In this document: positions 1 to 48,940 of the stretch, piece after piece
How positions within the stretch are numbered: the stretch's first letter is position 1
Layout: the number at the start of each line of letters is the position of its first letter
Assembly: GCA_037190965.1 (NCBI GenBank)
Contig: JBBCKI010000048.1
Coordinates: 10,297 to 74,296 of the forward strand
Length of the DNA stretch: 64,000 nt
DNA from: Chthoniobacteraceae bacterium
GTDB taxonomy: Bacteria > Verrucomicrobiota > Verrucomicrobiia > Chthoniobacterales > Chthoniobacteraceae
Direction of reading: 5' to 3'
Made by a program: the position numbers and the translations under genes
The notes under the pieces: model-generated
The model's input: only the letters and a program-made list of their open reading frames with translations
Database searches by the model: none
Told to the model about the DNA's origin: nothing

Positions 1-501
1 CTCAGCACGGGAAATTTCCGCGCCGCCGAGACGTCCGGCGCAACGGACCTTGATCCCCTGGGCGCCGAAATCCATCGTGGTCTGCACGGCCTTCTTCATC
101 GCGCGGCGGAACGAAATACGGCGCTCGATCTGGAGGGAGATGTTCTCCGCGACCAGCTGGGCGTCGAGTTCCGGGGTCTTGATCTCTTGAATGTCGATCT
201 TGACCTGCTTGCCACCCGACATGGAGGCGATCTCTTCGGTCATCCGCTCGATCTCGGTTCCTTTACGGCCGATCACGATCCCGGGGCGGGCCGTGTAGAT
301 CGTTACGCGGAGGCTGTTCCAGGCGCGCTCGATGACGATCTTCGCCACAGCGGCCAGGGCCAGTTTCTTTTTGACGTAGCCACGGATCTTGAGGTCCGTG
401 TGAAGGAATTCCGGGAAATCCTTGGGCGATGCATACCACCGCGAGCGCCAGTCCCGATTGAGGGCGAGGCGGTAGCCGATTGGATTAACTTTCTGACCCA
501 T
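1..501 (-). CDS. rpsC: 30S ribosomal protein S3 (N-terminal ~167 codons; 3-prime end beyond window edge)
   Basis: Hand translation of the reverse strand from ATG at 499-501 gives MGQKVNPIGYRLALNRDWRSRWYASPK..., the canonical S3 N-terminus. It lies 4 nt downstream of rplV. It is absent from the ORF track because the window edge truncates it. Confidence 0.9.
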   Translation of the reverse strand, partial: MGQKVNPIGYRLALNRDWRSRWYASPKDFPEFLHTDLKIRGYVKKKLALAAVAKIVIERAWNSLRVTIYTARPGIVIGRKGTEIERMTEEIASMSGGKQVKIDIQEIKTPELDAQLVAENISLQIERRISFRRAMKKAVQTTMDFGAQGIKVRCAGRLGGAEISRAE

Positions 502-505
502 AAAA

Positions 506-940
506 TTACTTGCTCTCCTGACTTGCTGCGCTCTTACGGGCCCGGGCCGGCTTGGCGGCTCCCGATTTTGCCCGCTTTCTGCTCTTGGCTTCGCGCGTTT
601 GAATTTCGATCTCGTCGGTGAGGATGATCCTGATGTGTGAGGAACGCTTCAGGATTGGACCGGCACTGCCACGAGCCTTCGGCTGCGACCGCTTCAAGGA
701 CGGACCTTCACCAACGGTGGCCTCCTTGACGACGAGCGTATCGACACGCAAGTTGGCGTTGTTTTCGGCGTTGGCGACTGCGCTCTTGAGCGTTTTCGCG
801 ACCAGCACGGCCGCTTTCTTCGGACTGAACGCAACGATGTCCAGCGCCGCCGCGACGGGCAGGCCCTGAATTTCGCGCGTCACCTCCCGAGCCTTGAAGG
901 CCGAAATGCGCGCATACTTGTATGTCGAATGAATCTGCAT
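506..940 (-). CDS. rplV: 50S ribosomal protein L22 with basic C-terminal tail
   Basis: The 144-aa ORF MQIHSTYKYARISAFKAREVTREIQGLPV...SHIRIILTD is L22-like and sits directly upstream of rpsC. The extra C-terminal segment is K/R/A-rich. Confidence 0.93.
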   Translation of the reverse strand: MQIHSTYKYARISAFKAREVTREIQGLPVAAALDIVAFSPKKAAVLVAKTLKSAVANAENNANLRVDTLVVKEATVGEGPSLKRSQPKARGSAGPILKRSSHIRIILTDEIEIQTREAKSRKRAKSGAAKPARARKSAASQESK

Positions 941-952
941 GTTAGTTGAAAT

Positions 953-1750
953 TTACCTGGCATCCACCCTAAGGCGGTCGCCGACTTTAATTTTGTTCTT
1001 CTCAGAGTCCAGACTTTGTATCACTCCACCGCAAATTTTTTCGCGAACGTCCACCACCCGGATCACCCCGATGTCATTTCCATCGCGAATGATTCGGAAG
1101 GGCATCCCCACTTTCACCCCATGGGCACTCCCGATATTGCCCACAACCAGTGACCACTCCTCTTTGATGCTGATCACCATCCCTTGGGTCAGGTCGGCCG
1201 GTGCCGAGTAAGGCTGGCCACTTCCCGGGATTCCGAGGGCCTCCGCCACACTGCGCATCCGGGCTTCCAACGCCAGGCGGGCCTCCGCATCTTCCGATGT
1301 GGCCCCTTTGGTGAAACGCAGCACCGCTTCGCTGAGTTGGACAAGCTCGTCGGCGAGCTTGTCTTTCTCGCTCTGCAGGAGCTGGAGATCGCGCACTCCT
1401 TTCAGAAGCCGCTGCTCGAGCTTGCGCTTGTCGCCGCTGAGTCCATCGACTCCGAGCGCCTCCATTCGCAACTTCAGCTCCGCCGCCTCTTTCCGGAACA
1501 CCTCGGCTTCGCTGTTGGATACAGCGAGGCTTTCGGTGAGCGATTTCACTGCGGTCTGTGCTTCGGAGAGTTGCTGCTTGAGAAGTTGATTCTCGGCAGC
1601 AACCGTCTGAAGCGTGACCTTCGCTTCCGTAAATTCTATGTCTAGATCTGAGAAAGAACTCTCCCCATTGGCGACTGGCCCCATTGCCAGCGCCAAAAGC
1701 ACCCCTCTTACGGCTTTCGCCGCTCCTGCCATTGTAGCAGGAAAACTCAC
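953..1750 (-). CDS. Secreted coiled-coil protein of unknown function embedded in the S10 operon
   Basis: A 265-codon ORF fills the rpsS-rplV gap exactly. Its GTG start overlaps the rpsS TAG by 1 nt (TAGTG), and its stop lies 12 nt before the rplV ATG. An alternative ATG is at 1732. It has a signal-peptide-like N-terminus (AKAVRGVLLALAMGPVANG), about 140 aa of heptad-rich coiled coil, and a beta-rich C-terminal segment of roughly 70 aa (NIGSAHGVKVGMPFRII...). Codon usage looks native. Confidence 0.7.
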   Translation of the reverse strand: MSFPATMAGAAKAVRGVLLALAMGPVANGESSFSDLDIEFTEAKVTLQTVAAENQLLKQQLSEAQTAVKSLTESLAVSNSEAEVFRKEAAELKLRMEALGVDGLSGDKRKLEQRLLKGVRDLQLLQSEKDKLADELVQLSEAVLRFTKGATSEDAEARLALEARMRSVAEALGIPGSGQPYSAPADLTQGMVISIKEEWSLVVGNIGSAHGVKVGMPFRIIRDGNDIGVIRVVDVREKICGGVIQSLDSEKNKIKVGDRLRVDAR

Positions 1751-2028
1751 TACTTGCTGACCTTGGCCGTGTGCGCTCCGTGCTTCTTGAACACACGCGT
1801 CGGGGAAAATTCCCCGAGTTTGTGACCAACCATGTTCTCGGTCACAAATACCGAGTTGAAAATCTTGCCGTTGTGCACCAGGAACGTATGCCCAACGAAA
1901 TCCGGCGTGATCATCGACCGGCGGGACCAGGTCTTGATCGGCTTCTTGACTCCGCCTTCGTTCATCTTGTCGATCTTTTCGAGCAGATGGAGGGCGACGA
2001 AAGGCCCTTTTTTCAGTGATCTTCCCAT
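1750..2028 (-). CDS. rpsS: 30S ribosomal protein S19
   Basis: [19 protein letters not shown]...[11 protein letters not shown] is canonical S19, and the gene lies downstream of rplB. Confidence 0.96.
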
Positions 2029-2040
2029 AAAATCTCGGCG

Positions 2041-2883
2041 TTACTTCTTGGCGTTGCGGCGCTGCACAATAAAGTTGTTGCTCTCCTTGTGCTTACGGCG
2101 GGTCTTGAAGCCCTTGGCGAGCTGACCCCATGGGCTCATCGGGTGGTGGCGTCCACCGCCGCCCTTCGACTTGCCCTGACCTCCACCCATCGGGTGGTCT
2201 ACCGGGTTCATCACCATACCGCGGACGTGCGGACGGCGTCCGAGCCAGCGGCTACGGCCCGCTTTGCCCGAGGAGACGTTCATGTGGTCAACGTTGCCGA
2301 CCTGTCCGATCGTCGCGTAAGCCGTTTCATGGATCTTGCGGATCTCACCGGAAGGCAACTTGACGAGGGCATAACCAGCTTCGCGGTTGCTGAGAACAGC
2401 CACCTGACCGGCGCTACGGGCGATCTGGCCGCCACGGCCGGGGATCAACTCGATATTGTGGATCGAAGAACCGAGCGGGATGCTCTTGAGAGGAAGAGCA
2501 TTACCGACTTCCGGTGCAGCCGTTTCCCCTGCGGAGACCTTGCGGCCGACGGTGAGACCCACTGGAGCGAGGATGTATGCCTTCTCGCCGTCTGCGTACT
2601 GGAGCAGCGCGATGCGGGCCGAACGGTTCGGATCGTACTCGATGCCAACCACTTCCGCGGCGATGTCGCGCTTGCTGCGCTTGAAGTCGATCAACCGATA
2701 CTTCTGCTTGTGCCCACCGCCGATGTGGCGGGAGGTCAAGCGACCGCGGTTGTTACGCCCGCCGGTCCGCTTCTTGGGAGCAAGGAGGCTTTTCTCGGGC
2801 TTGGATTTGGTGATCTCCTCGAAGGCCGGGAGCGCCTTGTAGCGCTGTGCCGGGGTCAAAGGACGGAAAGTTTTAAGTGCCAT
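2041..2883 (-). CDS. rplB: 50S ribosomal protein L2
   Basis: The 280-aa ORF carries the L2 motifs ([23 protein letters not shown]). Confidence 0.97.
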
Positions 2884-2930
2884 GGTCCGTTATTCTTGTT
2901 TGGCGGCTCTGAGAGAACCCGGTTAGGCCG

Positions 2931-3215
2931 TTAGGCCAGTTCGATCTTCTCCCCTTTCTTGAGAGTAACGATCGCCTTTTTCCAGTGCGCGGTCCGCCCG
3001 GCGTCGGCCCGACGTTCCCGGCGCTTCTTGCCGGCATAGTTCGCGGTGTTGACCGACGCTACTTTCTTGCCGAAAAGCTTCTCGATGGCCTGCTTGATCT
3101 GGAGCTTGTTGGCGCGAGGCGAAACGCGGAAGACATACTTGCCGAGTTTTTCGCTCAGGAGCGTCGCCTTCTCCGTCAGGACAGGCGTTTGAATCAATTG
3201 ATGCGGCTCGTTCAT
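2931..3215 (-). CDS. rplW: 50S ribosomal protein L23
   Basis: The 94-aa ORF (VLTEKATLL...YVFRVSPRANKLQIKQAIEKLF) is L23-like and lies between rplD and rplB. Confidence 0.94.
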   Translation of the reverse strand: MNEPHQLIQTPVLTEKATLLSEKLGKYVFRVSPRANKLQIKQAIEKLFGKKVASVNTANYAGKKRRERRADAGRTAHWKKAIVTLKKGEKIELA

Positions 3216-3823
3216 TACTGGATCCTTTCTGCCAACTTCGCGAGGGCGTCTTTGGTAATGACGATCTTCTTGAACGCGAGGAGGTTTTCGGTATTCACCT
3301 CACTGGCCGTAATCAGGCGCGTCGGCTGGACGTTGCGGGCGGCCTTAAAGGTGTTCTCGTCGAACTGGGTCGAGATGATCAGCGTCTTCTCAACTCCGAC
3401 GTTATCTTTCACCCAACCGATAAACTGTTTGGTCTTCGGCTCGGCGATGGCAAAGCTGTCAACGGTCAGAACATCACCGGCAATAATCCGGGAGCTGAGC
3501 GCTTTCTTGAGGGCGAGGCGGCGAACCGACTTCGTGACCTTCTTGGAATAGTCGCGGGGCTTTGGGCCGAAAACGACACCACCACCCACCCAGACGGGCG
3601 AGCTCTTGTAGCCGGCGCGGGCGCGACCCGTGCCCTTCTGACGCCAGGGCTTGGAACCGGATCCGCTGACATCCGCCTTGGTCTTGGTGTTGGCGGTTCC
3701 GCTGCGGCGGTTGGCCCGGAGGGCGACAACTACGTCATGCACCGCTTGGGTGCCGCGGCCGTTTTCAATCAAGGCGAGATTCGCCTTCTTGGCTGCATCA
3801 ATGGTGAGAACGGTAGCGCTCAT
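3215..3823 (-). CDS. rplD: 50S ribosomal protein L4
   Basis: The 202-aa ORF contains SKPWRQKGTGRARAG, the L4 signature. Its start and stop overlap the neighbouring genes. Confidence 0.95.
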   Translation of the reverse strand: MSATVLTIDAAKKANLALIENGRGTQAVHDVVVALRANRRSGTANTKTKADVSGSGSKPWRQKGTGRARAGYKSSPVWVGGGVVFGPKPRDYSKKVTKSVRRLALKKALSSRIIAGDVLTVDSFAIAEPKTKQFIGWVKDNVGVEKTLIISTQFDENTFKAARNVQPTRLITASEVNTENLLAFKKIVITKDALAKLAERIQ

Positions 3824-4473
3824 TACTTAGCCTCCGCGGGAAGGGGTTTTTTCTTGGCAGGGCGGACGATCACATAACCGCCGTTGCTGCCGGGAACTGC
3901 GCCCTTGATGAGCAAAACCTGTTCGGCTTCGCGCACCTGGACGATGGAAAGATTCTGGACGGTGATACGATCATCACCCATGTGACCGGGCATCCCCTGG
4001 TTTTTCCAGATACGGCCTGGGGTAGAGCGGTTGCCGATGGCACCCGGACGGCGATGCATCATCGAACCGTGCGAAGCGGGCTGTCCCTGGAAGCCGTGCT
4101 TTTTGACGACACCCTGGAAACCGTGGCCCTTGGAACGCCCAATCACGTCAACGATCTGACCGACCTGGAAGTGCGAAGCGGTAAGATTGAGTTCCCCTTC
4201 GACCTTATCGCCGTCGAGGAGGCGGAATTCCGCAACCCGCTTTTTGGCTTCGGAGCCTGCCTTCTTGAAGTGGCCCAACTCAGCCTTGTTCACGCGGGAT
4301 TCCTTCTGGGTATCAAACCCGACCTGGATGGCAGAGTAGCCGTCCTTTTCGAGAGTCTTAACCTGAAGAAGGGTGTTGCCGCCGACAGCGACGACGGTCA
4401 CGGGGGTTGAACGCCCCTTCTCGTCGTACACTCGGGTCATCCCGACTTTCTTACCTATCAGTCCGTATTTCAT
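3823..4473 (-). CDS. rplC: 50S ribosomal protein L3
   Basis: The 216-aa ORF MKYGLIGKKVGMTRVYDEKGRSTPVTVV... is L3-like. Confidence 0.96.
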   Translation of the reverse strand: MKYGLIGKKVGMTRVYDEKGRSTPVTVVAVGGNTLLQVKTLEKDGYSAIQVGFDTQKESRVNKAELGHFKKAGSEAKKRVAEFRLLDGDKVEGELNLTASHFQVGQIVDVIGRSKGHGFQGVVKKHGFQGQPASHGSMMHRRPGAIGNRSTPGRIWKNQGMPGHMGDDRITVQNLSIVQVREAEQVLLIKGAVPGSNGGYVIVRPAKKKPLPAEAK

Positions 4474-4499
4474 TGCGTCTATTGGTTCGTGAACACCGG

Positions 4500-4811
4500 T
4501 CAGATCTTGATGGTGATATCAACACCAGCCGGGAGGTTCAGCTTCTTGAGTTCATCTACCGTCTTTGCGGTCGGCTCGATGATATCCAGGAGGCGTTTGT
4601 GCGTCCGGATTTCGAACTGATCCATCGACTTCTTGTCGACGTGCGGGGAGCGGTTGACAGTAAATTTTTCGATCCGCGTAGGAAGCGGGATCGGCCCAGC
4701 CACCTTGGCGCCGGTGCGCTTGGCGGTCTCGACGATGTCCAGGGAGGACTGGTCGAGCGTCCGGTAATCGAAGGCTTTGAGCCGGATGCGAATTCGTTGG
4801 CCGTTGGTCAT
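4500..4811 (-). CDS. rpsJ: 30S ribosomal protein S10
   Basis: The 103-aa [21 protein letters not shown]...[14 protein letters not shown] is canonical S10. Confidence 0.96.
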
Positions 4812-4846
4812 AGAAATTTGCGGTTGCTAGCGTTGATCGAAACTTT

Positions 4847-6997
<2,151 letters not shown>

Positions 6998-7011
6998 GGC
7001 AATAAATTAAG

Positions 7012-7485
7012 TTAGAAGCGGAAGTGTGCGAACGCGCGATTGGCCTGTGCCATCTTGTGGGTGTCGTCGCGCTTTTTGATCGCGTTCCCCTGCCCGGCGG
7101 CGGCTTCCTTGAGTTCGTTGGCGAGAGCGTCAACCATCGGGATGCTCTTGCGCTTGCCGGCGAATCCGACGATCCATCGCATCGCGAGCGCCAACTGGCG
7201 GGCGGGCGGGACTTCCATCGGGACCTGGTAGGTCGCACCGCCGACGCGGCGGGATTTGACTTCGAGGCGCGGCTTGACGTTGTCGATCGCCTTGTTGAGC
7301 GTCTCGAGCGGATCAACCGCATCGGACCCCTCGCGGGTCTTCTCGATGGCGGTGTAAACAATCCGTTCAGCAACGGACTTTTTACCATCCTGCATGATCG
7401 TGCTGATCAACCGGGCAACCACTGGGCTACCGTAACGGCTGTCGAACTTCTCGGTTTTTTTGATGACTCTGCGGCGACGTGACAT
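7012..7485 (-). CDS. rpsG: 30S ribosomal protein S7
   Basis: The 157-aa ORF (DSRYGSPVVARLISTIMQDGKKSVAERIVY...) is S7-like. Confidence 0.96.
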   Translation of the reverse strand: MSRRRRVIKKTEKFDSRYGSPVVARLISTIMQDGKKSVAERIVYTAIEKTREGSDAVDPLETLNKAIDNVKPRLEVKSRRVGGATYQVPMEVPPARQLALAMRWIVGFAGKRKSIPMVDALANELKEAAAGQGNAIKKRDDTHKMAQANRAFAHFRF

Positions 7486-7506
7486 GGTGACGCTTTCTGA
7501 AGTTAA

Positions 7507-7926
7507 TTACTTGCGCTTCCCACCCTTGCCTTTGGCGGCGGCAGCTTCCTGACCGGGCTTCGGACGCTTGGCTCCGTATTTGGAGCGGGAACGACGGCGG
7601 CCGTCCACCCCGAGGGCGTCGAGCGTACCGCGGACGATATGATAACGAACGCCGGGAAGATCCTTCACACGACCGCCACGGACGAGCACGATGGAGTGCT
7701 CCTGAAGGTTGTGACCTTCACCGGGGATGTACGCGATGACTTCCTGACCGTTCGTCAACCGAACCTTGGCCACTTTACGAAGCGCGGAGTTGGGCTTTTT
7801 AGGCGTGCGGGTCATTACCTGCACACACACCCCACGGCGCTGTGGGCAATTCACGAGAGCCGGTGATTTGGATTTCACCGTCACCTGTTTGCGTCCCTTG
7901 CGGACAAGCTGGTTGATCGTTGGCAT
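7507..7926 (-). CDS. rpsL: 30S ribosomal protein S12 with short basic C-terminal extension
   Basis: [13 protein letters not shown]...[10 protein letters not shown]...GVRYHIVRG is canonical S12. The extra tail reads [16 protein letters not shown]. Confidence 0.96.
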
Positions 7927-9273: not shown

Positions 9274-9384
9274 GGCGATTAGCCTCAAGACAACCAGGGG
9301 GGAGCAAATCGGCAGCTTTGCCGACATGAGCCGATCATGACACGGCGCTTGCAAAGAGGCTTTCCCCCACTGATAATTAAGAGG

Positions 9385-10155
9385 ATGAATCTGGACCTGA
9401 ACAATCTCCTCGAAGGCTGGCCGCACGAGCCCGGGCAGATCCGTGTTCGCAAAGTGTTGGGCAATGATGGACGCGAAAAGCTCCAGCTTCGGATCGATCT
9501 CGGACTTATCCAGATGGAACTGAATGGCCGACCTGATGGCCACCGCCCCCATGGCAGCGAATCGCTTCTCGAATGGCATAAGGAACGCGCAGAGGCAGCC
9601 GAAGCCAAAGGCGACTCTTTTACCCTAAGCCCGGAAGATTGTGCCGAGCTTCAGCACGAAGGCATCCAGTATTATCACCGTTATATCTCCTTCTTCCAGA
9701 TCGAGGATTACCCCGGTGTCATCCGTGACACCCAGCGCAACCTCGAACTCCTGAACTTCGTCGTCAAATACGCGGAGCGCGAGGAACTGGCGTGGCAGAT
9801 CGAGCAATTCCGCGCGTACCTCATCATGATGAACACGCGCGCCAAGGCTTCCATTGAACTGGACCGGAACGACTACACCGCCGCAATCCGCCAGATCGAG
9901 CGGGGCCGGGATAAGATTCTCGAAGCCTTGCAGGAGCAGGAGCGCCCCGAAGGGAGCCAAAACAGCGGGGAAATCCAGTTTCTGGAGCAATGGCTGGAAG
10001 AACTTCGAAACAAACGCCCGCTCTCCAAACTGGAAATGCTCCAACAGGAGATGGATCGAGCCATTGCCGCCGAGGCCTACGAGCGCGCCGCGGAGCTTCG
10101 CGACGCCATCAAGGCGGAACGCGACACCGCGTCTTCCTCTTCGCCGTCCAGTTAA
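9385..10155 (+). CDS. UVR-motif-containing protein of unknown function
   Basis: I placed the start at the ATG at 9385, which follows TAAGAGG. A C-terminal UvrB/UvrC-type motif is present (AAEAYERAAELRDAIKAER). The ORF track begins the frame at 9337. Confidence 0.75.
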   Translation: MNLDLNNLLEGWPHEPGQIRVRKVLGNDGREKLQLRIDLGLIQMELNGRPDGHRPHGSESLLEWHKERAEAAEAKGDSFTLSPEDCAELQHEGIQYYHRYISFFQIEDYPGVIRDTQRNLELLNFVVKYAEREELAWQIEQFRAYLIMMNTRAKASIELDRNDYTAAIRQIERGRDKILEALQEQERPEGSQNSGEIQFLEQWLEELRNKRPLSKLEMLQQEMDRAIAAEAYERAAELRDAIKAERDTASSSSPSS

Positions 10156-18340: not shown

Positions 18341-21220
18341 TTAGGCTACCCGCGATCCGCCATGCCGCTTCCTCCATCCCAGGAGCGCGCCCGCTCCAAG
18401 GACAAGCAGAGCCCAATTGCCGGGCTCGGGAACAACGGCGAACTCGCTATTGTGATTGATGACAGCCCAGACCGTCTTTTTCGAAACGTCGACTCCGTAG
18501 TATCCGAGAATAAAGTCGCTGCTTGCATCGAAGGCTTTCTCTCCGCGATTGAAGGCCGTTCCGCCGATGTTGCCATCGACCGCATTGACCCATTTGTTGG
18601 TCTCCGTATTCAACCAGCCAAGAATATTCCCGGCCGTGATGTCGGCAACCGTGATTTCAAGGACGAACATGTCCGTCTCCCCCGTGTTGCCATCAAGCAC
18701 CGAGACCCCGCTCAGGTGGAACACATTACCAAGGCGAAGATCATCATTGATTGCCAAGGAGCTTGCGGAAAAACTCCCTTCCAGCGTCGCTGCCCCCGAA
18801 CTGGTGCCCGCTGCAATCCTGGCCTTGGTGGTCACGCCACCAATGGAGCCGGTGAGATTCATGGAATTAGTCAGGCTTGCGCCGGACTCGATCCCGCGTT
18901 CGAAACTGCCGCCTTCCAGGGTGAGGGTGTTACCAAAATCAACGCCCGCGTTGATCGAAAGCGTCCCACTCTTGACGGTGACCGCTCCTGTGCCGAGAGC
19001 ATAATTGGCGCTGGCGACAAGACGCCCCGCTTCGAGCACAGTTCCACCACTGTAACTATTGCTGGCACTCAGAGTGAGAGAACCGACCCCCTGCTTGATA
19101 ATCCGTCCGGTTCCGCTCACAGAGTTAGCGACGGCAATATCGGAGCCGACGCCCGCCTGCACGATGAGCGTGCCGCTCGTCATGCTGACGTTGCCGGTAC
19201 CGAGAGCATCATTCGCGTTCACGACGATGCTACCCCCTTGAAGCGTCGTTCCGCCGCTATAGCTATTGCTGGCGCTTAGAGTCAGAGAACCGGCCCCTTG
19301 CTTGATCACCCTCCCGGTTCCGCTCACGGAAGAAGCGATGGATATATTGGAGCCCGACTGCGCCGTCACCATGAGCGTGCCGCTGTTGATGGCCACGCCA
19401 CCCGTCCCAAGAGCATGATCGGCGGTGACGGTCACGTTCCCCCCTTCGATAACCGTTCCGCCACTATAGCTATTACTGGCACTGAGGGTGAGAACCCCCG
19501 TTCCCTGTTTGATCAGCCCCCCACTCCCGCTCACCGAAGAGGTCACGGAAATGTTGAAGCCGTTGCTATCGATGTAAGCGCCGCCATTCCCGAAGGCGAC
19601 CTCCCCGTTGGAGAAACCTGAAATAAAAGTGCTCGATCCAGCCTGGGCGCGAACTATTCCACCGTCCAAAACCAAAGAGGCCGTTCCTGAGCTATTGTTC
19701 TTTTTGATCTGTGTCGCTTCCAGAACGGCGCGGTTGCCTGCGCTGCCGGAAAGCGTGAGAGTGCCATTACCGGTAGCAGAACCACTCAGGCTGACCACTT
19801 TCGCTTTGACCAGACCGCTAGAGATGTCCAGAGCCCCGGTACCGCCGTCGCCAACGGTCAAGGCGGCGGTCGTCACATTCACTGTCCCGCTGGAAACCGT
19901 CACGATTCCGTTACCGGTCGTGCCGGTTCCTATCGTCATTCCGTTCGCCGTGAGAACCCCTCCATTGAGCGCCATCGTAGCAGATCCGCTGCTTCCAACA
20001 TGCAGGGTTGCGCTCGTATTCCATGTTCCGTCGGACATCGTCACATCGCCCCTGCCGTCCTTGCCACTTCCAATGTAAACCGTGGTGGTTTGAACAGCCC
20101 CACCGCTCACTGTCATCGCCGCCGTCCCCGAATTTCCCAAAGACAAATAGCCGGGGTTGAAAGTGCCGCCCGTAACGGTGATGTCGGCACGAGTGTTTGC
20201 GTTGGGTGCCGCGTAAAAACTCGCGCTGGAAAAAGTTCCACCGCTCACCTCCAACGAGGCTTTGTTGGTTTGCCCAAAGTAGATCGTGCTTCCATTGAAA
20301 GCACCACTGCTGACCACCACCTCCCCCTCGCCGGTTCCGGCCCCAACATAAGTGGAACCGGTGGAAGAAACATACCCGCCATTGACCGTTAATGTCCCTT
20401 TACCCCTATTGCCGATGTACGGGGCGTTCAGGGTCAAAGTGCCGCTGGTAACGGTCACGGAGCCGACACCGGTGCCGCTGCCGCCGGAGGCACCGCCGAT
20501 TGAGGAGCCAGTGCCTGCGGCGGAAACATTGCCGCCATTGATAACCATCGAGCCGGTGCCGGAACTACCCACCGTCAAGGTGCCCGTCATGTCCCATGTT
20601 CCACCGGTGATCGAGGCGCTGCCGTTTGAGCCGCTACTATTTCCGATACTGCCACCAACGCTGGAAATGGAGCCACCGCTCATGTTGAGCACACCTTGTC
20701 CCTGATGACCAACGTACAACGTATTGCTGCTGGTCCAGGTGCCGCTCGTGATGGTGGCCGTACCGCTCCCTAGAGCGTCAAATCCCAAGTAAGCCGCACC
20801 TCCAGTAAGCTGGCCGCCCGAGAGCGCTAGCGTTCCCGCTCCCCCGGAAGTATTCCCGAGATAGAGACTACCATAGCTTCCAGTAACACCGCTCCCAACA
20901 GAGGCAACGCCCTTGTTGTTGATGATGGTCGAGCCGCTTGTAGTCGGCACAGTCCCGCCGCTCCAATTCGAGCCGGTACCCCAAGAAGCACTGCTTCCCG
21001 TCCATGACTTCTGGGCATATGCCGACGGCTGGGCGAAAAACATCCCCGCACTCAGGAGCGCCAGTGCACCCAAGTTTCTCGCGATGCGACTCACTTGACT
21101 TACCTCCCTGGACACAACGGGGCGATCGCCTGCAAGGTAAGTTGATGGACTGAAGTGGGCCTCTTCTTTGAATAAGAGGGCATGAGCAACGCTGGGGTTG
21201 GGTTGATTTTCGGTCTGCAT
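18341..21220 (-). CDS. Giant secreted beta-helical repeat protein (autotransporter-associated beta-strand/PATR-type repeats) with C-terminal PEP-CTERM anchor, paralog 1
   Basis: G/S/T-rich repeats occur throughout (GGTWDMTGTLTVG..., three 69-aa units SSVSGSGGLIKQGTGVLTLSASNSYSGGT...). The C-terminus VPEPGNWALLVLGAGALLGWRKRHGG is a PEP-CTERM signal. The start is set at the ATG conserved with paralog 2 (MQTEN). The track extends to 21295. Confidence 0.88.
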   Translation of the reverse strand: MQTENQPNPSVAHALLFKEEAHFSPSTYLAGDRPVVSREVSQVSRIARNLGALALLSAGMFFAQPSAYAQKSWTGSSASWGTGSNWSGGTVPTTSGSTIINNKGVASVGSGVTGSYGSLYLGNTSGGAGTLALSGGQLTGGAAYLGFDALGSGTATITSGTWTSSNTLYVGHQGQGVLNMSGGSISSVGGSIGNSSGSNGSASITGGTWDMTGTLTVGSSGTGSMVINGGNVSAAGTGSSIGGASGGSGTGVGSVTVTSGTLTLNAPYIGNRGKGTLTVNGGYVSSTGSTYVGAGTGEGEVVVSSGAFNGSTIYFGQTNKASLEVSGGTFSSASFYAAPNANTRADITVTGGTFNPGYLSLGNSGTAAMTVSGGAVQTTTVYIGSGKDGRGDVTMSDGTWNTSATLHVGSSGSATMALNGGVLTANGMTIGTGTTGNGIVTVSSGTVNVTTAALTVGDGGTGALDISSGLVKAKVVSLSGSATGNGTLTLSGSAGNRAVLEATQIKKNNSSGTASLVLDGGIVRAQAGSSTFISGFSNGEVAFGNGGAYIDSNGFNISVTSSVSGSGGLIKQGTGVLTLSASNSYSGGTVIEGGNVTVTADHALGTGGVAINSGTLMVTAQSGSNISIASSVSGTGRVIKQGAGSLTLSASNSYSGGTTLQGGSIVVNANDALGTGNVSMTSGTLIVQAGVGSDIAVANSVSGTGRIIKQGVGSLTLSASNSYSGGTVLEAGRLVASANYALGTGAVTVKSGTLSINAGVDFGNTLTLEGGSFERGIESGASLTNSMNLTGSIGGVTTKARIAAGTSSGAATLEGSFSASSLAINDDLRLGNVFHLSGVSVLDGNTGETDMFVLEITVADITAGNILGWLNTETNKWVNAVDGNIGGTAFNRGEKAFDASSDFILGYYGVDVSKKTVWAVINHNSEFAVVPEPGNWALLVLGAGALLGWRKRHGGSRVA

Positions 21221-21403
21221 GATAAGATTAGGGAAGCTGCGGCAAACTTCCTCGAAGCGAGGAGCGCCTCTCAAGACGACGAACCTCTTGATCAAAAGAC
21301 AATTAGTCCATAGTCCAGGTTCGATTGAAGAGATGACTTCAACAACACAGTCATTTGTACCTCATACTGAATGCTCCAACAATCGGCGCAGATCGTCTTT
21401 TAT

Positions 21404-21633: not shown

Positions 21634-24504
21634 TTAGGCTACCCGCGATCCGCCATGCCGCTTCCTCCACCCTAGAAGCGCACCCGCTCCAAGGACGAAC
21701 AACGCCCAGCTGCCGGGCTCGGGAATGACGGTGAACTCGCTATTGTGGTTGATAACAGCCCAGACCGTTCCTTTCGAAACGTCGATTCCGTAATACCCGA
21801 GAATGAAGTCGCTACTGGCATTATAGGCCTTGTCCCCGAGGTTAGTGGCCGTTCCACCGATGTTGCCATCGACCGCGTTGACCCATAGGTTGGTTTCCGC
21901 ATTCAACCAACCGAGGATGTTGCCGGCCGCAATATCGGCAACCGCGATTTCAAGGACGAATATATCCGTCTCGCCCGTGTTGCCATCAAGCACGGAAACC
22001 CCGCTCAGGTGAAACACGTTCCCGATGCGAATTTCATCGTTGATCGCCGCGGAGTTCGCGGAGAAGCTGCCATCCAGTGTCGTTGCCCCCGAGCTGGTAC
22101 CCCCCGCAATCCTGGCCCCGGTGGTGACGCCGCCGATGGAGCCGGTGAGATTCATAGAATCCACAAGGCTTGCTCCGGAGCTAATGCCACGCCTGAAATT
22201 ACCGTCCTCCAGGGTGACGTCATTATCAAAGTCAACGCCCGCCTGCACCGAAAGCGTGCCGCTCTTGACGGTGACCGCGCCTGTACCCAGAGCGTGATTG
22301 GCGCCGGCGACTACGCTACCCGCTTCGACGACAGTTCCTCCACTGTAGCTATTGCTAGCGCTCAGAGTCAGCGCCCCCGTCCCCTGCTTGGTCAGCCCTC
22401 CGCTTCCGCTAACGGACGCAGCGATGCCAATATCGGAGCCAAGTTCCGCCTGCACCGTAAGCGAGCCGCTCTTGAGAGTAACGTCGCCCGTGCCGAGGGC
22501 GTGATTGGCGCTGACGATAATGTCACCCGCTTCGAGAACCGTTCCACCGCTATAGCTATTGCTGGCGCTCAGAGTCAGCGCCCCCGCCCCCTGCTTGGTC
22601 AGCGCTCCGCTTCCGCTCACCGATGAGGTAATGGCAATATCGGAGCCGACTCCCGCCTGTACCGTAAGAGTGCCACTCTTGAGGGTGATGTCGCCCGTAC
22701 CGAGAGCATGATTGGCGCTGACGATAATATCACCCGCTTCGAGAACCGTTCCGCCACTGTAGCTATTACTGGCGCTCAGAGTCAGCGCCCCCGCCCCCTG
22801 CTTGGTCAGCGCTCCGCTTCCGCTCACCGATGAGGTGATGGCAATATCGAAGCCATTGCTATCGATGTAAGCTCCGCCATTCCCTATGGCGACTTCCCCG
22901 GCGGCAAAATTGGAGATAAAGGCGTTCGACGCGGCCCGGGCGCGAAGGACTCCGCCATCGAACGCAACGGAAGCCGTTCCTGCGCTGCTGCCCCTCTGGA
23001 CCTGCGTCGCCTCCAGAACGGCTCGGTTGCCTGCGCTGCCGGAAAGCTTCAGGGTGCCATTACCGCTGGAAGTACCCGCGACAATAACCGCCTGCGCGTT
23101 GACCAAACCGCCGGAAAGATCCAGAGTTCCTTTACCTTTGCCGGCAACGGTCAGGCCGGATGTTGTGACGTTCAGAGTCCCGCTGGTAACCGATACGGTT
23201 CCGTCGCCGGTGTCTTCCAGCCCGATCGTCATTCCAGTCGTCGTGAGAAGGCCGCCTTCAACCGCCATGGAAGCAGTTCCCCTGGTCCCAACGGCCATGG
23301 TTCCCGAGGTCCACGTTCCCCCGGTTAGACTGACGTCGGCGTTGGCGCCCGCGTTAGTACCGAAAGTGGTGCTACCTGTCGTGACAACCCCGCCGCTCAC
23401 CGTCATTGACGCCGCTCCATTTTGCCCAATGTGAGAAAGAGCAGTGCTGAATGTACCGCTCGAGACGGTTATATTAGCACTACCCTCCGCTCTGGAAGCC
23501 GCGTAAAATACGCCCGTGTTGTTGAGAAAGGTGCCGCCGCTCACTTCCAAAGAGCCTGCGCCGAAGTTTCCGACGGTAAAATTTGCACTCGAAGTAAAGG
23601 TACCACTACTAACGACCATCTTCCCCTCGTTCGCCCCAGCCGCAACAATAACGGCGCCGGTATTGCTAACGTACCCACCATTGATGGTCATTGTTCCTTT
23701 TCCCTGAGAACCGACTGTCATGCCCGAGGCTGAGGTCAAGGTGCCACTGGTGACGGTGACGGTACCGACACTAGTATTTGAAGAACCGATAACCAGAACA
23801 TAGCTGGTAACAGTGCCTCCATTGATCGCCATCGAGCCGGTACCGCTTTTGCCCACAATCAAGTTGCCAGACATTGCCCATGTCCCACCGGTAACCGAAG
23901 CACTGCCGTTTGCACCGGCCAAACTTCCGAAATCGACCATATTGCTGGAAATGCGACCACCGCTCAAGCTGACTACGCCCTGCCCTCCGTAGCCAAGAAA
24001 CGTAGAGCCAGTGGTAGTCCAGGTACCGCTCGTAACGGTTGCGGTACCGCTCCCCAAGGCATCATACCCCAAGTAAGAAGCAGCCCCAGACAGTTGGCCA
24101 CCCGTGATCGATATGGTCCCCGCCCCCCCGGATGTGTTCCCGAGGTGAAGATAGCTGTAGTTTCCAGTAACACCGGTCGCAACCGAAGCAACGCCTTTGT
24201 TATTAATCATGGTCGTGCCGCTTGCCGTCGGCACGCTTCCGCCGTTCCAGTTCGAGCCTGTACCCCAGGAACCGCTACTTCCCGTCCACGTCTTCTGAGC
24301 ATTGGCCGAAGGTTGGGCGAAGAGCAGGCCCGCTCCCACGATCGCCAGTGCGCCGACGTTTCTCGTAAGGCCACTAACCCATCTTCCCCGCACCGACACA
24401 ATCGGGCGGTTTTCCGCCAAGCAAGCTGATGATCTGGAGTGAGCCTCCTCACTGAGCAAGGAAGAAAAGGTAACGCTGGAGCTTGGAAGGTTCTCTGTAG
24501 ACAT
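21634..24504 (-). CDS. Giant secreted beta-helical repeat protein (PATR-type repeats) with PEP-CTERM anchor, paralog 2
   Basis: The architecture matches 18341-21220, and the N- and C-terminal thirds are highly similar to it. The C-terminus is IPEPGSWALFVLGAGALLGWRKRHGG. The start is set at the conserved ATG (MSTEN). The track extends to 24549. Confidence 0.88.
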   Translation of the reverse strand: MSTENLPSSSVTFSSLLSEEAHSRSSACLAENRPIVSVRGRWVSGLTRNVGALAIVGAGLLFAQPSANAQKTWTGSSGSWGTGSNWNGGSVPTASGTTMINNKGVASVATGVTGNYSYLHLGNTSGGAGTISITGGQLSGAASYLGYDALGSGTATVTSGTWTTTGSTFLGYGGQGVVSLSGGRISSNMVDFGSLAGANGSASVTGGTWAMSGNLIVGKSGTGSMAINGGTVTSYVLVIGSSNTSVGTVTVTSGTLTSASGMTVGSQGKGTMTINGGYVSNTGAVIVAAGANEGKMVVSSGTFTSSANFTVGNFGAGSLEVSGGTFLNNTGVFYAASRAEGSANITVSSGTFSTALSHIGQNGAASMTVSGGVVTTGSTTFGTNAGANADVSLTGGTWTSGTMAVGTRGTASMAVEGGLLTTTGMTIGLEDTGDGTVSVTSGTLNVTTSGLTVAGKGKGTLDLSGGLVNAQAVIVAGTSSGNGTLKLSGSAGNRAVLEATQVQRGSSAGTASVAFDGGVLRARAASNAFISNFAAGEVAIGNGGAYIDSNGFDIAITSSVSGSGALTKQGAGALTLSASNSYSGGTVLEAGDIIVSANHALGTGDITLKSGTLTVQAGVGSDIAITSSVSGSGALTKQGAGALTLSASNSYSGGTVLEAGDIIVSANHALGTGDVTLKSGSLTVQAELGSDIGIAASVSGSGGLTKQGTGALTLSASNSYSGGTVVEAGSVVAGANHALGTGAVTVKSGTLSVQAGVDFDNDVTLEDGNFRRGISSGASLVDSMNLTGSIGGVTTGARIAGGTSSGATTLDGSFSANSAAINDEIRIGNVFHLSGVSVLDGNTGETDIFVLEIAVADIAAGNILGWLNAETNLWVNAVDGNIGGTATNLGDKAYNASSDFILGYYGIDVSKGTVWAVINHNSEFTVIPEPGSWALFVLGAGALLGWRKRHGGSRVA
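22221..22841. repeat. Three in-frame 207-bp tandem repeats inside adhesin paralog 2
   Basis: The period is 207 nt, hand-indexed from caatatcgg at 22428, 22635 and 22842. Units 22428-22634 and 22635-22841 are nearly identical. Each encodes a 69-aa SSVSGSGALTKQGAGALTLSASNSYSGGTVLEAGD... module. Confidence 0.85.
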
Positions 24505-24679
24505 AATGTGGTTAAGGGAGTTGGGCGATCGTCCGTGGCGTGCGACCACCTCTTTGAAAGAGGCCGTGCCAATCAGAAGATCAGCAGTCCATCGCCGCTT
24601 ACAAAGATGATCTCAATGAAGCGCCCCCTTTTTACTTTGATTCAGCATCCCCCGACAGTCGGCGCATATCGTCATTTTT

Positions 24680-29115: not shown

Positions 29116-32100
29116 TCATCGTTGCGAGGGGGCGTCTTCGAAATAAATGGCCGCCTCGTCTTCTCCCGGCATGACGTAGAGGGATTTGTGACCACCGACG
29201 ATTTCCTTTCCGTGGGGATAACGAACCATGAGAAAGACTTGCTGTGCAGGAGCATCGACAAACTCGAACCGGCCTTCCTGATCGGTCGTGAGTTCAGGGC
29301 TCGAAACTCCACTATTGTCGATGGTCCAGTTCAACCGGACGCCGGGGATTCCCGCCCCGGTGGATTTATCGAGGATCCGCCCGGCAACCCGCTTTCCATT
29401 TTTGAGGACCACCGGCTTCCCGCTCGAAAATTCAACCGGCGTTTCAGCGCGAAGATAACCGCCGCTCTCCGGTCGAAGAAAGAAGCGTTCCCCCGGTTCA
29501 TCGCCTCCGACCCACAATGTGACGCGGCCACTGGCATCCGTTTGAAGGGAATGATCGCCCGCGATCCGCTCAAAACCATCCTTGAAGATCGATGTTGAAA
29601 GGCTGATCCCCGAGGCCGGTCGCCCGTCTTCACCCACCACAAGGATCTCGTACTTTCTTGGCTCGGGCAGCGTCAGAATGACATCGCTGACGGGATTGCG
29701 GGCATTGATTCTGACAGGCTGGCTGATGACGAAACGGTTCCAGCAAGAAGCGACGACCTGATAACCCCTTCCACCAAACTCGATCGGTTTGGAAAGATAC
29801 CATTCCCTCGCATCCTCCGGAGATGCCCCGTTCTTGATCTCGATGCGGTCCCACTCGCTGTCCCCTTTCCGTCGCCCCCAGACAAAGACGGATTGCGCCA
29901 GCTCTCCATTTTTCTCCAGAACTTTCACCCGTATCATTCCTGCGGGCTTAACGGGAATCGTCAGAACGGTGGGGTCTGTCGTGGCCTGATACTCGGCTTT
30001 TTCATCAATCTTGCCCCCAAGCAACGTTGAATTGTTCAGCCGAAAGAGAGCAGTCCCCGGAAGCTCGAATTCCGCCTTACCCTCTTTGATGGGCACGTCA
30101 AAACCTCTCCACGCTTCCGTCTTTCCCGGCAGTGCCCAGTTGAGCCAGAAACTTCCCGTGGGGGCCGCGCCGCCTCGTCCGGTATCCAGATTGAGAACGA
30201 CCTTCACCTTCGCGGGCGGCTTGATTTTTGCATAGTCGATCGTGAACTCCGTGGTTTCTGCACTGAGTTCAGGCGAGTGACTCCAAAGGCCCAACATATA
30301 AATATCCACTGGCAAGGGGCGGAGCCCGCGCAGTTCAACCTCAGCGATACCCTCGGCGATGGGCATTGTCACACGCGCTGAATCTGAGCCGTTCTCGGAC
30401 GTTCTTTGACCATACTGAACCGTGATCTCCTTTTCGGGAACGTCCAGATTGATGATCTTGAGTTTCAACCGCCGCTCGCGAGGCAATCGCAACGTCAGGC
30501 TGTTTTCCTTGCCGGGGCTGATCCGAAATAGCGCCCCACGACGGAATGACGCGCCCGTCTCGTCGCGGATCGAAGCTTCCGCCTGCATTCCATAAATCAC
30601 TTTCGGATCCAGCCCATCCAGCGTCGCCTGCCCCCCGGCATCGGTCCGCAATCCAGTGTAGTTCCATTTTGGCCATGCGAGCCCGGCGTTATTGGGCCAC
30701 GCCTCGTTGATCCGAAGAGTAACGTCCTTGAGAGGAGTCCCGTCGAGTTCGTCGATGACGGTCAGCACAAATGGCGCTGTTCTTTTAAGCGCAAACTGAG
30801 GCGGTTCTGTTTGCGACCTCACCAGAAATCTCTCAATGCGGGCCGTCTGGTATCCCGGCGCGGAGATGCGAAGCTCTCCGAACCAGCGTTCGGGTTGATG
30901 CTTGAAATGAGCAAGGCCGTCAGCGTCAGTCGTCGAGCGCTGCTCCGAAATGCTCCATCCATAAGAGATCGCCACTTCCGCGCCGTGAATCGGCCTCGAC
31001 TCCGTATCCACACAACGCACCGCATAAACGATGCCGCGTTTGAGCACGACGGAAACATTCTCCGACGATCTTGTCAGTTCAAAGATTTCCGACGCGAACG
31101 CAAATTCCTCGGCTGTGACATAGAACCGCAGCAATCCATTGGGCAGCTCACCCTCGAACCTTCCATCGGCCAGGGTTTCTCCACGCGCGGTGGTCGAATT
31201 CGAGACGGGAAGCATTCTCCAAACGGCGCGCGGCACCGGTTTTCCCATCTCGTCCACGATGGTGCCGGAGAAGCGACGCATTTCCTGCCGCTCTTGCGAA
31301 GGATTTTGATAAACCCCGATCTGCCGCATGAACGGAGCCGCAAGGCGCTGAATCATCTCCACGCGCTCCTTGGCGGTTAACTGCTTGACGGCGAACCGCA
31401 CGCCCTGCCCTGCCGCCACGAAAAACAGCGCCACGAGACAGGCGACGGCTCCCGCGCCGAGCCAACCCGCCGGAGTGCGTGGAATATGGCCCGGGTTCAG
31501 AAGCCGCATCACCCGGTCGCGCAACCCGCTCCGCGACTTCTTTCCATCTCCGCTTATCGCCATTGCGGCCCCGACAGCCTCTCCTCCGGCGTTGCGAGTC
31601 CACCAGATCAGCGCCTCTGCATAAACGGCGGGATCGCTGCAAAAATGACTAGCCATCGCATCGCAGCAGGCTTCCCGTTCGCGACGCACGGTTCGATTGA
31701 GCGCCCAGACGAAAGGGTTGAAGAAGAGCAATGCCTCGGTGCCCATTTGCAGCAGGTTGATCAGGAGATCCCACCGGACCACATGCGCCACTTCGTGCGC
31801 CAACGCCGCGCGCAACACCTCGGGAGAAACGCCCGTCACAAGAGAGGCAGGCAACAGAATGACAGGCCGCGCTATTCCAACGACCACGGGAGAAAGAACG
31901 CGGTGGCAGGTTTTGAGCCGGATCGTCATCCGCGTTCCATAAGCCGCACAGACCTTGTCCAATTCCATGACCCAATCCGGATCTTTCACCAGCCTGGCTT
32001 CCCGGTGGAATTTCCGCGCGGAAGCAACCGAAGTGGCAATCCGCCAAAAGCCGATCGCCACGCCCGCCTGCCACACCATCAATAACCCGCTTTGCCACGG

Positions 32101-32421
32101 AAAGGCGGTGCGAGATACGGATAGGGACGAAACGGATGCGGGTTGGACCGTCGCCTGCAAGTCCGCATGAATACCGCCGGAAGCGTTCAAAGCGGGCGAC
32201 TCCCTTTTCAATTCAGATTTCCGTTCTTGGGCAACTTCCCTTTCCAACAAAGTCCAAGTCGCAAACCATGCGGTCGTCACCAGGCAAACCGCTCCAAGTG
32301 CCAACCGGTATCGCGCATTCGAGGCTCGCGCCGGAATGAATCGAAGAAGAAAAAATACAACCAGCCATGCCAATCCGCCCTGCCAGATCGAATGCAGCAA
32401 TGACGCGGATAGCGGATTCAT
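29116..32421 (-). CDS. BlaR1-like M56 peptidase signal transducer with large C-terminal beta-sandwich repeat region
   Basis: The N-terminal polytopic M56 domain carries HEVAHVVRWD (HExxH). About 770 further residues carry repeated G-x-V-x-D-x-x-G-x-P-x-x-G-A-x-V motifs of CarboxypepD_reg type. The start overlaps the blaI stop. Confidence 0.85.
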   Translation of the reverse strand: MNPLSASLLHSIWQGGLAWLVVFFLLRFIPARASNARYRLALGAVCLVTTAWFATWTLLEREVAQERKSELKRESPALNASGGIHADLQATVQPASVSSLSVSRTAFPWQSGLLMVWQAGVAIGFWRIATSVASARKFHREARLVKDPDWVMELDKVCAAYGTRMTIRLKTCHRVLSPVVVGIARPVILLPASLVTGVSPEVLRAALAHEVAHVVRWDLLINLLQMGTEALLFFNPFVWALNRTVRREREACCDAMASHFCSDPAVYAEALIWWTRNAGGEAVGAAMAISGDGKKSRSGLRDRVMRLLNPGHIPRTPAGWLGAGAVACLVALFFVAAGQGVRFAVKQLTAKERVEMIQRLAAPFMRQIGVYQNPSQERQEMRRFSGTIVDEMGKPVPRAVWRMLPVSNSTTARGETLADGRFEGELPNGLLRFYVTAEEFAFASEIFELTRSSENVSVVLKRGIVYAVRCVDTESRPIHGAEVAISYGWSISEQRSTTDADGLAHFKHQPERWFGELRISAPGYQTARIERFLVRSQTEPPQFALKRTAPFVLTVIDELDGTPLKDVTLRINEAWPNNAGLAWPKWNYTGLRTDAGGQATLDGLDPKVIYGMQAEASIRDETGASFRRGALFRISPGKENSLTLRLPRERRLKLKIINLDVPEKEITVQYGQRTSENGSDSARVTMPIAEGIAEVELRGLRPLPVDIYMLGLWSHSPELSAETTEFTIDYAKIKPPAKVKVVLNLDTGRGGAAPTGSFWLNWALPGKTEAWRGFDVPIKEGKAEFELPGTALFRLNNSTLLGGKIDEKAEYQATTDPTVLTIPVKPAGMIRVKVLEKNGELAQSVFVWGRRKGDSEWDRIEIKNGASPEDAREWYLSKPIEFGGRGYQVVASCWNRFVISQPVRINARNPVSDVILTLPEPRKYEILVVGEDGRPASGISLSTSIFKDGFERIAGDHSLQTDASGRVTLWVGGDEPGERFFLRPESGGYLRAETPVEFSSGKPVVLKNGKRVAGRILDKSTGAGIPGVRLNWTIDNSGVSSPELTTDQEGRFEFVDAPAQQVFLMVRYPHGKEIVGGHKSLYVMPGEDEAAIYFEDAPSQR

Positions 32422-32792
32422 TCCTTGGCCCTCCTTTTGTGTACCCGGATCATCCGTTCGATCTCGGAAAGCTCCGCTTCGCTAACATCGCCCGATTCCA
32501 AAAGCTGCATGAACACCGCCGAAGGCTTGCCGCCAAACACCTTCTGAACCATCTCTCCAAGATACTGCCCAAGGACGCTTTGCTTTGGATTGGCCGGTCT
32601 CCAACGATCCGTCAGCCCTTCCCTCTTTCGTTTGACCAGCCCCTTTCGATCCATGATTTGAAGGATCGAAAGAATGCTGGTGTAAGCCCGTTCCTTCTGA
32701 TCGGGCATATTCTCCAACACCTCCCTTGCCGTCGACGGACCACGCTCCCACAAGACCACAAGAATCTGCATCTCAAGTTCAGACGGCTTCAT
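32418..32792 (-). CDS. BlaI/MecI/CopY family transcriptional repressor
   Basis: The 124-aa winged-helix protein (LEMQILVVLWERGPSTAREVLENM...AYTSILSILQIMDRKGLVKR) is directly upstream of the M56 gene and overlaps it. Confidence 0.88.
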   Translation of the reverse strand: MKPSELEMQILVVLWERGPSTAREVLENMPDQKERAYTSILSILQIMDRKGLVKRKREGLTDRWRPANPKQSVLGQYLGEMVQKVFGGKPSAVFMQLLESGDVSEAELSEIERMIRVHKRRAKE

Positions 32793-43618: not shown

Positions 43619-43753
43619 CGTTTCAAAGTTTCGAATTGAAGTCACGGTTCCCTGGCAGCCGCGCGAAAGGGGTCCGGTAGGTTTATTAAATTGAGGATCG
43701 AGGCGACTCAAGCGGCAACGGTCGTCTTTCCGTATCAAAACAGAACGAAGCTC

Positions 43754-48923: not shown

Positions 48924-48940
48924 TCCCTCACTCAAGCAGC

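Follow-up and report, generated by a model that had tools for sequence, protein, structure and literature searches.

A predicted exported coiled-coil and beta-barrel protein encoded between rpsS and rplV in the S10 operon of Verrucomicrobiota

Few gene orders are known to be as stable as the S19-L22-S3 block, and the question raised by the locus described here is what a further, apparently non-ribosomal gene is doing inside it. The locus lies in a 64,000-nucleotide (nt) stretch of contig JBBCKI010000048.1 of a Chthoniobacteraceae bacterium (assembly GCA_037190965.1, positions 10,297 to 74,296), which was analyzed as a whole and is called the window below. In it an open reading frame (ORF) of 265 codons, designated gene X, fills the junction between rpsS and rplV. 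An earlier reading of the sequence (the original prediction) had taken it for the gene of a secreted coiled-coil protein. Homology, synteny and substitution patterns strongly support X being a genuine, vertically inherited gene.

The order of genes on the minus strand is rpsL, rpsG, fusA, rpsJ, rplC, rplD, rplW, rplB, rpsS, X, rplV and rpsC. The genes from rpsJ to rplB, which form the part of the S10 operon 5' of X, were assigned from the ORF list and from the Pfam labels at syntenic loci. The ratio of nonsynonymous to synonymous substitution rates is abbreviated dN/dS.

4500-4811, minus strand: rpsJ
3823-4473, minus strand: rplC
3215-3823, minus strand: rplD
2931-3215, minus strand: rplW
2041-2883, minus strand: rplB
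1750-2028, minus strand: rpsS (S19), stop codon TAG at 1752-1750; 80-99% identity to the S19 of 80 loci, Pfam Ribosomal_S19 on the syntenic genes
953-1750, minus strand: gene X, 265 codons, GTG start; predicted exported coiled-coil and beta-barrel protein (ORF list, synteny, dN/dS 0.20)
941-952, minus strand: spacer of 12 nt between the TAA of X and the ATG of rplV
506-940, minus strand: rplV (L22), its C-terminal tail rich in Lys and Ala; syntenic genes labelled Ribosomal_L22 by Pfam
1-501, minus strand: 5' part of rpsC (S3), continuing past the window edge

The GTG of X (1750-1748) has one base, the G, in common with the rpsS stop codon, giving TAGTG at 1748-1752, and the TAA of X at 955-953 is followed by the spacer (952-941) and by the rplV start codon at 940. 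All coordinates originally given for this packing were correct. Translational coupling of X to rpsS through the TAGTG overlap is plausible. It is not proven, because an in-frame ATG at 1732-1730, 18 nt 3' of the GTG, is an alternative start which would give a product of 259 amino acids (aa). The public gene call (P0001) is 259 aa, equal to the ATG-start length. In the nearest orthologues the first codon aligns with the GTG. Directly 3' of X, the tail of L22 is rich in Lys, Ala and Arg; L22 is 144 aa in the window and its length varies strongly among relatives, with gene calls from 110 to 180 aa in loci L081-L091.

A search with the X protein returned more than 4,400 database homologues. The top 120 were approximately 250-310 aa in length, shared at least 55% identity with X and were annotated as hypothetical; those carrying an organism name were all Verrucomicrobiota. 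Based on the method of Nei and Gojobori, applied to pairs with dS of 0.05-1.5, the dN/dS of X was 0.20, compared with 0.21 for L22, 0.145 for L2 and 0.05 for S19. The constraint was located in the helical part (0.18) and the C-terminal barrel (0.14) of the product, and was relaxed in the N-terminal 30 residues (0.79) and in a linker (0.70). X is under purifying selection and does not evolve neutrally, as it should if the original prediction of a functional gene was right.

Conservation of the position was examined in three sets of loci. When a single genome from each GTDB species was scanned, at least 260 species had a relative, a number bounded by the two peptide patterns that served as probes. 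The best 80 loci were all from Chthoniobacterales (Chthoniobacteraceae, Terrimicrobiaceae and "Spartobacteria"), and the order L2-S19-X-L22-S3 was present in all 80 wherever the contig allowed. Gaps were 0-50 nt between S19 and X and 0-100 nt between X and L22, the latter being exactly 0 in many loci. Distant homologues were picked through a profile of outlying family members, and all three of them (25-33% identity) were flanked by Ribosomal_S19 and Ribosomal_L22 genes. Seven further lineages were chosen by the L2 protein of one distant locus, which avoided selecting loci through X itself. Every one of these carried between S19 and L22 an ORF of 247-269 aa which lacked a Pfam match, matched the barrel profile of the family and had the architecture of X. 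L2 identity to the window was 60-71% in six of the seven and 80% in L087, against 71-95% within the 80 Chthoniobacterales loci. The arrangement extends beyond Chthoniobacterales, since the L2 of most of these lineages is only 60-71% identical to that of the window. Taken together (80 + 3 + 7), a homologue of X stands at the rpsS-rplV junction in 90 loci.

The distance between X proteins rises monotonically with that between their L2 and S19 neighbors (Spearman 0.79, 3,916 pairs), which fits vertical co-inheritance of X with the ribosomal proteins. It is strongly supported that X has been fixed in the S10 operon since before Chthoniobacterales split from several deeper verrucomicrobial lineages, and within the sample examined X was seen only in Verrucomicrobiota. 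In the freshwater lineage L087 (positions 1-2500 of that locus), rplD is preceded by an NTP-transferase gene and a 179-aa ORF in place of rpsJ and rplC. The S19-X-L22 block of this lineage is intact, so that X keeps its neighbors despite the rearranged 5' part of the operon. In two database proteins (P0129 and P0179) the C-terminal barrel of X runs in frame into L22. Both probably result from an error in gene calling or a frameshift where X and L22 meet with a gap of 0 nt, and they confirm the adjacency independently.

Published locus tags suggest a homologue in a further genus. In Verrucomicrobium spinosum rplV is VSP_RS22555 and rpsS is VSP_RS22565, with VSP_RS22560 between them (PMC12283558 supplement). 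From the position of its tag, VSP_RS22560 would be the homologue of X; transposon-directed insertion site sequencing (TraDIS) put it among the essential genes, at an insertion index of 0.0013 (PMC12283558 supplement). In Planctopirus limnophila rpsS and rplV have the consecutive tags Plim_0481 and Plim_0482, with no gene between them (PMC12283558 supplement).

A chance ORF, an assembly error or a recently acquired foreign, mobile or defence gene would be another account of an ORF in such a place. Such an origin could be read from the G+C content at third codon positions (GC3) and the codon adaptation index (CAI) of X, both below those of its neighbors, and from weak PADLOC matches to LmuB and JetC. 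Those matches are confined to coiled-coil segments resembling structural maintenance of chromosomes (SMC) proteins, and PHROGs gave no match for X. The gene is under purifying selection, occupies the same place in 90 independent assemblies, complete chromosomes included, and diverges along with the ribosomal proteins. Synteny, dN/dS and this co-divergence refute an artefact or a recent insertion, to which we assign a negligible probability; X is an ancient, vertically inherited gene, and the original prediction had likewise seen no obvious recent insertion.

The product of X was divided into the following parts, based on orthologue alignments and on an AlphaFold2 model built from a 66-sequence alignment (mean predicted local distance difference test score, pLDDT, 84.9). 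In the descriptions n/h/c stands for the charged, hydrophobic and cleavage-site regions of a signal peptide.

1664-1750, minus strand: signal-peptide-like N-terminus, residues 1-29, MSFPATMAGAAKAVRGVLLALAMGPVANG followed by E; n/h/c pattern in orthologues, dN/dS 0.79
1238-1651, minus strand: helical (coiled-coil) region, residues 34-171, from the AlphaFold2 model; dN/dS 0.18
1385-1540, minus strand: most conserved helical segment, residues 71-122, from per-column conservation in 331 family members
1184-1237, minus strand: variable linker, residues 172-189; pLDDT below 70, disordered in the model, of varying length across alignments, dN/dS 0.70
965-1183, minus strand: C-terminal FlgT_C/MreC-like beta-barrel, residues 190-262 (about 73 aa); pLDDT 93-97, Foldseek matches, dN/dS 0.14

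The N-termini of the orthologues combine an n-region containing K or R, a hydrophobic core of 10-15 residues and an AxA-like site, and are otherwise unrelated in sequence. They were scanned with a simple, crude rule (n/h/c regions, small residues at -3 and -1). The pattern was present in 87 of 90 orthologues and in 2 of 89 internal segments used as a control; 83 orthologues had K or R in the n-region and one had a lipobox. X itself shows under this rule the features of a substrate of signal peptidase I, namely a charged n-region, an h-region, small residues at -3 and -1 and no lipobox. A pattern that is kept while the sequence drifts (dN/dS 0.79) is typical of export signals, and the signal-peptide-like N-terminus noticed originally is thereby borne out. 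Sequence evidence of this kind strongly supports the export of X to the periplasm by a Sec-type signal peptide.

It could be argued that the N-terminus is no export signal and that X associates with ribosomes, either in the cytoplasm or tethered to the membrane, or is itself a ribosomal protein specific to the lineage. A place in the middle of the S10 operon would suit such a factor, and so would the fact that the V. spinosum gene at the junction appears to be essential. We consider it very unlikely, given the conserved n/h/c pattern with its drifting sequence and the positive charges before the hydrophobic core, which would place the body of X outside the cytoplasm even if the segment were an uncleaved anchor. 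In addition, the relatives of the barrel are periplasmic proteins, and X is acidic to neutral where ribosomal proteins are basic. X matched none of the ribosomal protein families in Pfam or NCBIfam, and the view of its product as non-ribosomal held.

The long coiled coil and the beta-rich C-terminal domain of roughly 70 aa that had been proposed were both recovered in the model. Helices span residues 34-98, 108-149 and 155-171 and total approximately 125 residues, with block-mean pLDDT of 93-98 at residues 41-90 and of 82-96 in the later helices. Conservation among the 331 family members peaks at residues 71-100 and 111-122, around G100, which is 97% conserved. The motifs SLAxANxEAExFR...LRMEALG and LEQRLLKAVRDL lie on the two sides of G100 and of a variable loop (101-110). 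Judged from this conservation and from the high helix pLDDT, segment 71-122 may be the tip of a helical hairpin.

In the barrel, G207, G211 and R236 are invariant, and G215-M-P217, R222, G241 and D258 nearly so. Searches of Pfam, NCBIfam and PDB sequences with the whole of X returned only coiled-coil noise, and the barrel profile gave only marginal TsaP and MexC matches in the PDB. Structural comparison with Foldseek against the PDB paired the barrel with FlgT (8z5n_0, E 2.5e-4; 3w1e, E 3.4e-4), with MreC (2j5u_A of Listeria monocytogenes, E 6.1e-4; 7eft_A, E 3.2e-3, E. coli MreC being at about 3e-3) and with the "crown" barrels at the N-termini of the ATPases of F1, V1 and type III secretion. 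Among 44 diverse family members, Pfam FlgT_C (PF16538) matched 14 at E<=0.05 (best E 4.7e-6) and Pfam MreC matched four, all below threshold (best E 1.1e-3). One member (P0298) has a precomputed PF16538 match. The barrel profile itself found 1,887 representatives (50% clustering) at E<=1e-3 and 323 at E<=1e-10; among the 150 best matches listed, most had the architecture of X and a few did not. Two relatives differ in layout: P0209 is a lipoprotein with four tandem barrels of the X type, scoring 27.3 bits against PF16538 and giving no useful match in the PDB, and P0266 is a membrane-anchored coiled-coil protein with two. The occurrence of the barrel in P0209, P0266 and X-type proteins marks it as a periplasmic module, a remote relative of FlgT_C and MreC, and suggests that it belongs to a wider, uncurated domain family related to FlgT_C.

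A resemblance to MreC had been suggested originally with low confidence, and at the level of the fold it holds. This raises the possibility that X is a divergent or displaced MreC paralogue which, as part of the elongasome, binds and activates a class B penicillin-binding protein (PBP2). The two proteins share a layout of N-terminal hydrophobic segment, coiled coil and beta-barrel, the structural matches (2j5u_A, 7eft and 9a5z_B) cover 107-187 aligned columns, P0209 reaches 22 bits against Pfam MreC in addition to the four sub-threshold matches among the 44 members, and two family members have been named "MreC" by Joint Genome Institute (JGI) pipelines. X of the window, however, gave no match to PF04085 (gathering score 28 bits) even at E<=10. 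It has one barrel where MreC has two, and its helices extend over a much greater length, with motifs peculiar to the family. A canonical mreC lies beside mreB in V. spinosum (VSP_RS17760), mreC has been reported in verrucomicrobia (PMC5147048), and the structural matches to FlgT are at least as good as those to MreC. We regard a paralogue of this kind as an unlikely identity for X.

How X is expressed bears on its role. No sigma-70-like promoter or intrinsic-terminator-like site was found on the minus strand at 1-7600. Together with the tight packing this is consistent with the proposal that X is co-transcribed with the ribosomal protein genes, which on the sequence is likely. The codon usage of X had been called native, and this was right only in part: with the ribosomal protein genes of the window and fusA as the reference set, the CAI of X is 0.467, near the lowest of all genes in the window, against 0.61-0.75 for its ribosomal protein neighbors. 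In GC3, X stands at 0.65 and its operon neighbors at 0.69-0.76; the GC3 of X was lower than that of the flanking ribosomal protein genes in 61 of 76 genomes. Because both values fall below those of the neighbors, expression of X in stoichiometry with the ribosomal proteins, which the original prediction had entertained, is not supported. In the spc operon secY is on the same transcript as ribosomal protein genes and is translated at a lower level. X is probably translated in the same manner, from a shared transcript and below the ribosomal protein level. Shine-Dalgarno strength in the 80 loci was -4.9 kcal/mol for X, only slightly better than the median of about -2 kcal/mol for the ribosomal protein genes, and gave nothing clear on coupling. 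The ribosomal protein genes of these loci have essentially no Shine-Dalgarno complementarity, which points to Shine-Dalgarno-independent initiation in the clade.

An exported protein whose synthesis follows that of other proteins could also be a holdase chaperone of the Skp or prefoldin type, with a barrel core and helical tentacles, escorting outer-membrane proteins. The combination of signal peptide, long helices and small beta-barrel would allow it, the operon place is growth-coupled like that of secY, and the barrel fold forms rings in ATPase crowns and in FlgT. Neither the sequence searches nor the top 50 Foldseek matches contained Skp/OmpH or prefoldin, though, and the helical turn is the most conserved helical part, suggesting one specific partner over promiscuous clients. 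The codon adaptation of X is also low for an abundant chaperone, and we regard this role as quite improbable.

On balance we think it somewhat probable that X is a growth-coupled periplasmic scaffold, encoded in the S10 operon, with a partner in the envelope growth machinery; this function we infer from architecture and position. Packed between two ribosomal protein genes, X would be carried on the S10 mRNA, and its supply would rise and fall with ribosome synthesis as that of secY does in the spc operon, its weaker codon adaptation keeping translation under the ribosomal protein level. In the periplasm the protein probably acts as an oligomeric scaffold, in which the barrel would mediate self-assembly or the binding of a partner. 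In FlgT, TsaP, MreC and the ATPase crowns it is through this barrel module that rings or polymers assemble and partners are bound. A second specific contact would come from the conserved helical turn. The partner would most plausibly belong to the cell-wall or outer-membrane growth machinery, and envelope growth would in this way be tied to growth rate. A bolder version, in which X is an essential envelope-growth factor, found so far in Verrucomicrobiota alone, an MreC/FlgT-like scaffold with its dosage hard-wired to ribosome synthesis, organizing or activating peptidoglycan or outer-membrane synthesis according to growth rate, is speculative and in our judgment rather unlikely.

Several observations weigh against a periplasmic scaffold. 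With respect to export, 55% of shuffled N-termini also passed the signal rule, hydrophobic composition being the cause. In two metagenome-assembled chromosomes from long reads (L017 and L030) the X ORF has no signal region and starts at a distance of 82 and 238 nt, respectively, from the end of rpsS, which may be either an assembly frameshift or a real loss of export. The predicted template modelling score of the model is 0.39, and a hairpin or oligomer geometry is not established by it. Mean-field direct coupling analysis for an antiparallel hairpin (331 members, effective number of sequences about 200) gave no usable stripe, gap artefacts of the signal peptide and linker being dominant. X of the window reaches no Pfam threshold, its score against FlgT_C being 11.1 bits (E 0.57) with a gathering score of 27 bits. 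Finally, the essentiality of VSP_RS22560 may come from a polar effect on the downstream ribosomal protein genes.

The synteny of X is solid and surprising to specialists. Much of a phylum has kept an exported non-ribosomal protein at the S19-L22 junction, and purifying selection on it equals in strength that on L22, which implies that its position or its dosage is important. The gene found there in V. spinosum scored as essential in the TraDIS data, yet no Pfam or NCBIfam model covers the family. The literature searched contained no description of a gene between rpsS and rplV or of the X family. Should the dosage indeed be hard-wired, X would couple envelope expansion genetically and directly to translational capacity, and to our knowledge no such coupling has been described in bacteria. 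X is a concrete candidate for a lineage-specific envelope factor in the cell biology of the Planctomycetes-Verrucomicrobia-Chlamydiae (PVC) group, a possible synteny marker for Verrucomicrobiota and a natural case for the tuning of passenger-gene translation inside a ribosomal protein operon. The "PVC signature protein" CT421.2, which we take to be a small nucleic-acid-binding protein, was considered as the identity of X and set aside. Nothing in PMC3444138 puts CT421.2 in the S10 operon.

The remainder of the window is ordinary chromosome. It encodes rpsB and tsf, the str operon, inosine monophosphate dehydrogenase (IMPDH), Dus, pyruvate phosphate dikinase, RNase R, an M16 peptidase, phosphoglucomutase, cdaA and folP, as well as rpoB and rpoC, which were assigned by size and position only. 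Other features are:

9337-10155, plus strand: ORF of 272 aa, no Pfam match at E<=1e-5
18341-21295 and 21634-24549, minus strand: two adjacent ORFs of about 980 aa each with passenger-associated transport repeats (PATR), autotransporter-like surface proteins
29116-32792, minus strand: BlaI-type repressor (124 aa) overlapping the start of a 1,101-aa BlaR1/M56 sensor-peptidase
43691-44914, plus strand: ORF of 407 aa, no Pfam match at E<=1e-5
45636-47855, plus strand: ORF of 739 aa, no Pfam match at E<=1e-5
48096-49166, minus strand: ORF of 356 aa, no Pfam match at E<=1e-5
49690-52632, minus strand: protein of 980 aa rich in tetratricopeptide repeats, with the lowest GC3 of the window (0.61) and a CAI of 0.47, between the 356-aa ORF and tsf/rpsB

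The BlaR1/M56 protein has added CarboxypepD_reg, Big_1 and macroglobulin-like domains, and the BlaI and BlaR1-like genes have CAI values of 0.46-0.48, low like that of X.

Among known systems, MreC is alike in being a bitopic or exported envelope protein that combines a hydrophobic N-terminal stretch and a coiled coil with a barrel bearing a motif of the type G-x3-G-V-x2-G-M-P. The succession of an N-terminal membrane segment and a periplasmic coiled coil is predicted for X as well, where the segment looks cleavable. MreC has two tandem six-stranded beta-barrels after the coiled coil, and X the single barrel at 190-262 in the model; the two-barrel architecture and the polymers of MreC have been described (PMC8804602). 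MreC is encoded with mreB (and mreD), whereas X was at the rpsS-rplV junction in each of the 90 loci. The C-terminal domain of FlgT and the FlgT-like domains of TsaP are the best structural matches of X, and FlgT_C is the Pfam family most often matched across its relatives; the beta-roll/barrel fold of FlgT_C is found in X (8z5n_0, 3w1e). Both are periplasmic ring-building modules (bioRxiv 10.1101/2020.05.29.123786). FlgT has in addition N and M domains and TsaP a LysM domain, none of which is present in X, which adds a long helical domain and has the S10 operon, not a flagellar or pilus cluster, as its context. By analogy X may work most like periplasmic scaffolds of the MreC, FlgT or TsaP type, yet it does not qualify as a member of either the MreC or the FlgT family.

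With respect to position, the non-ribosomal passengers of the S10-spc-alpha cluster include secY, adk, map, infA and rpoA. These are near-universal and belong to the spc and alpha operons, while X breaks into the S10 operon within its S19-L22-S3 block. Those insertions in this operon cluster that have been studied closely in Gammaproteobacteria and Bacilli are placed at the boundaries of operons or close to them (PMC8046335). The closest parallel is secY: like it, X would be a non-ribosomal envelope gene fixed inside a ribosomal protein operon, presumably co-transcribed and translated at a different level, and its position, found in 90 loci, is likewise conserved across a large clade.

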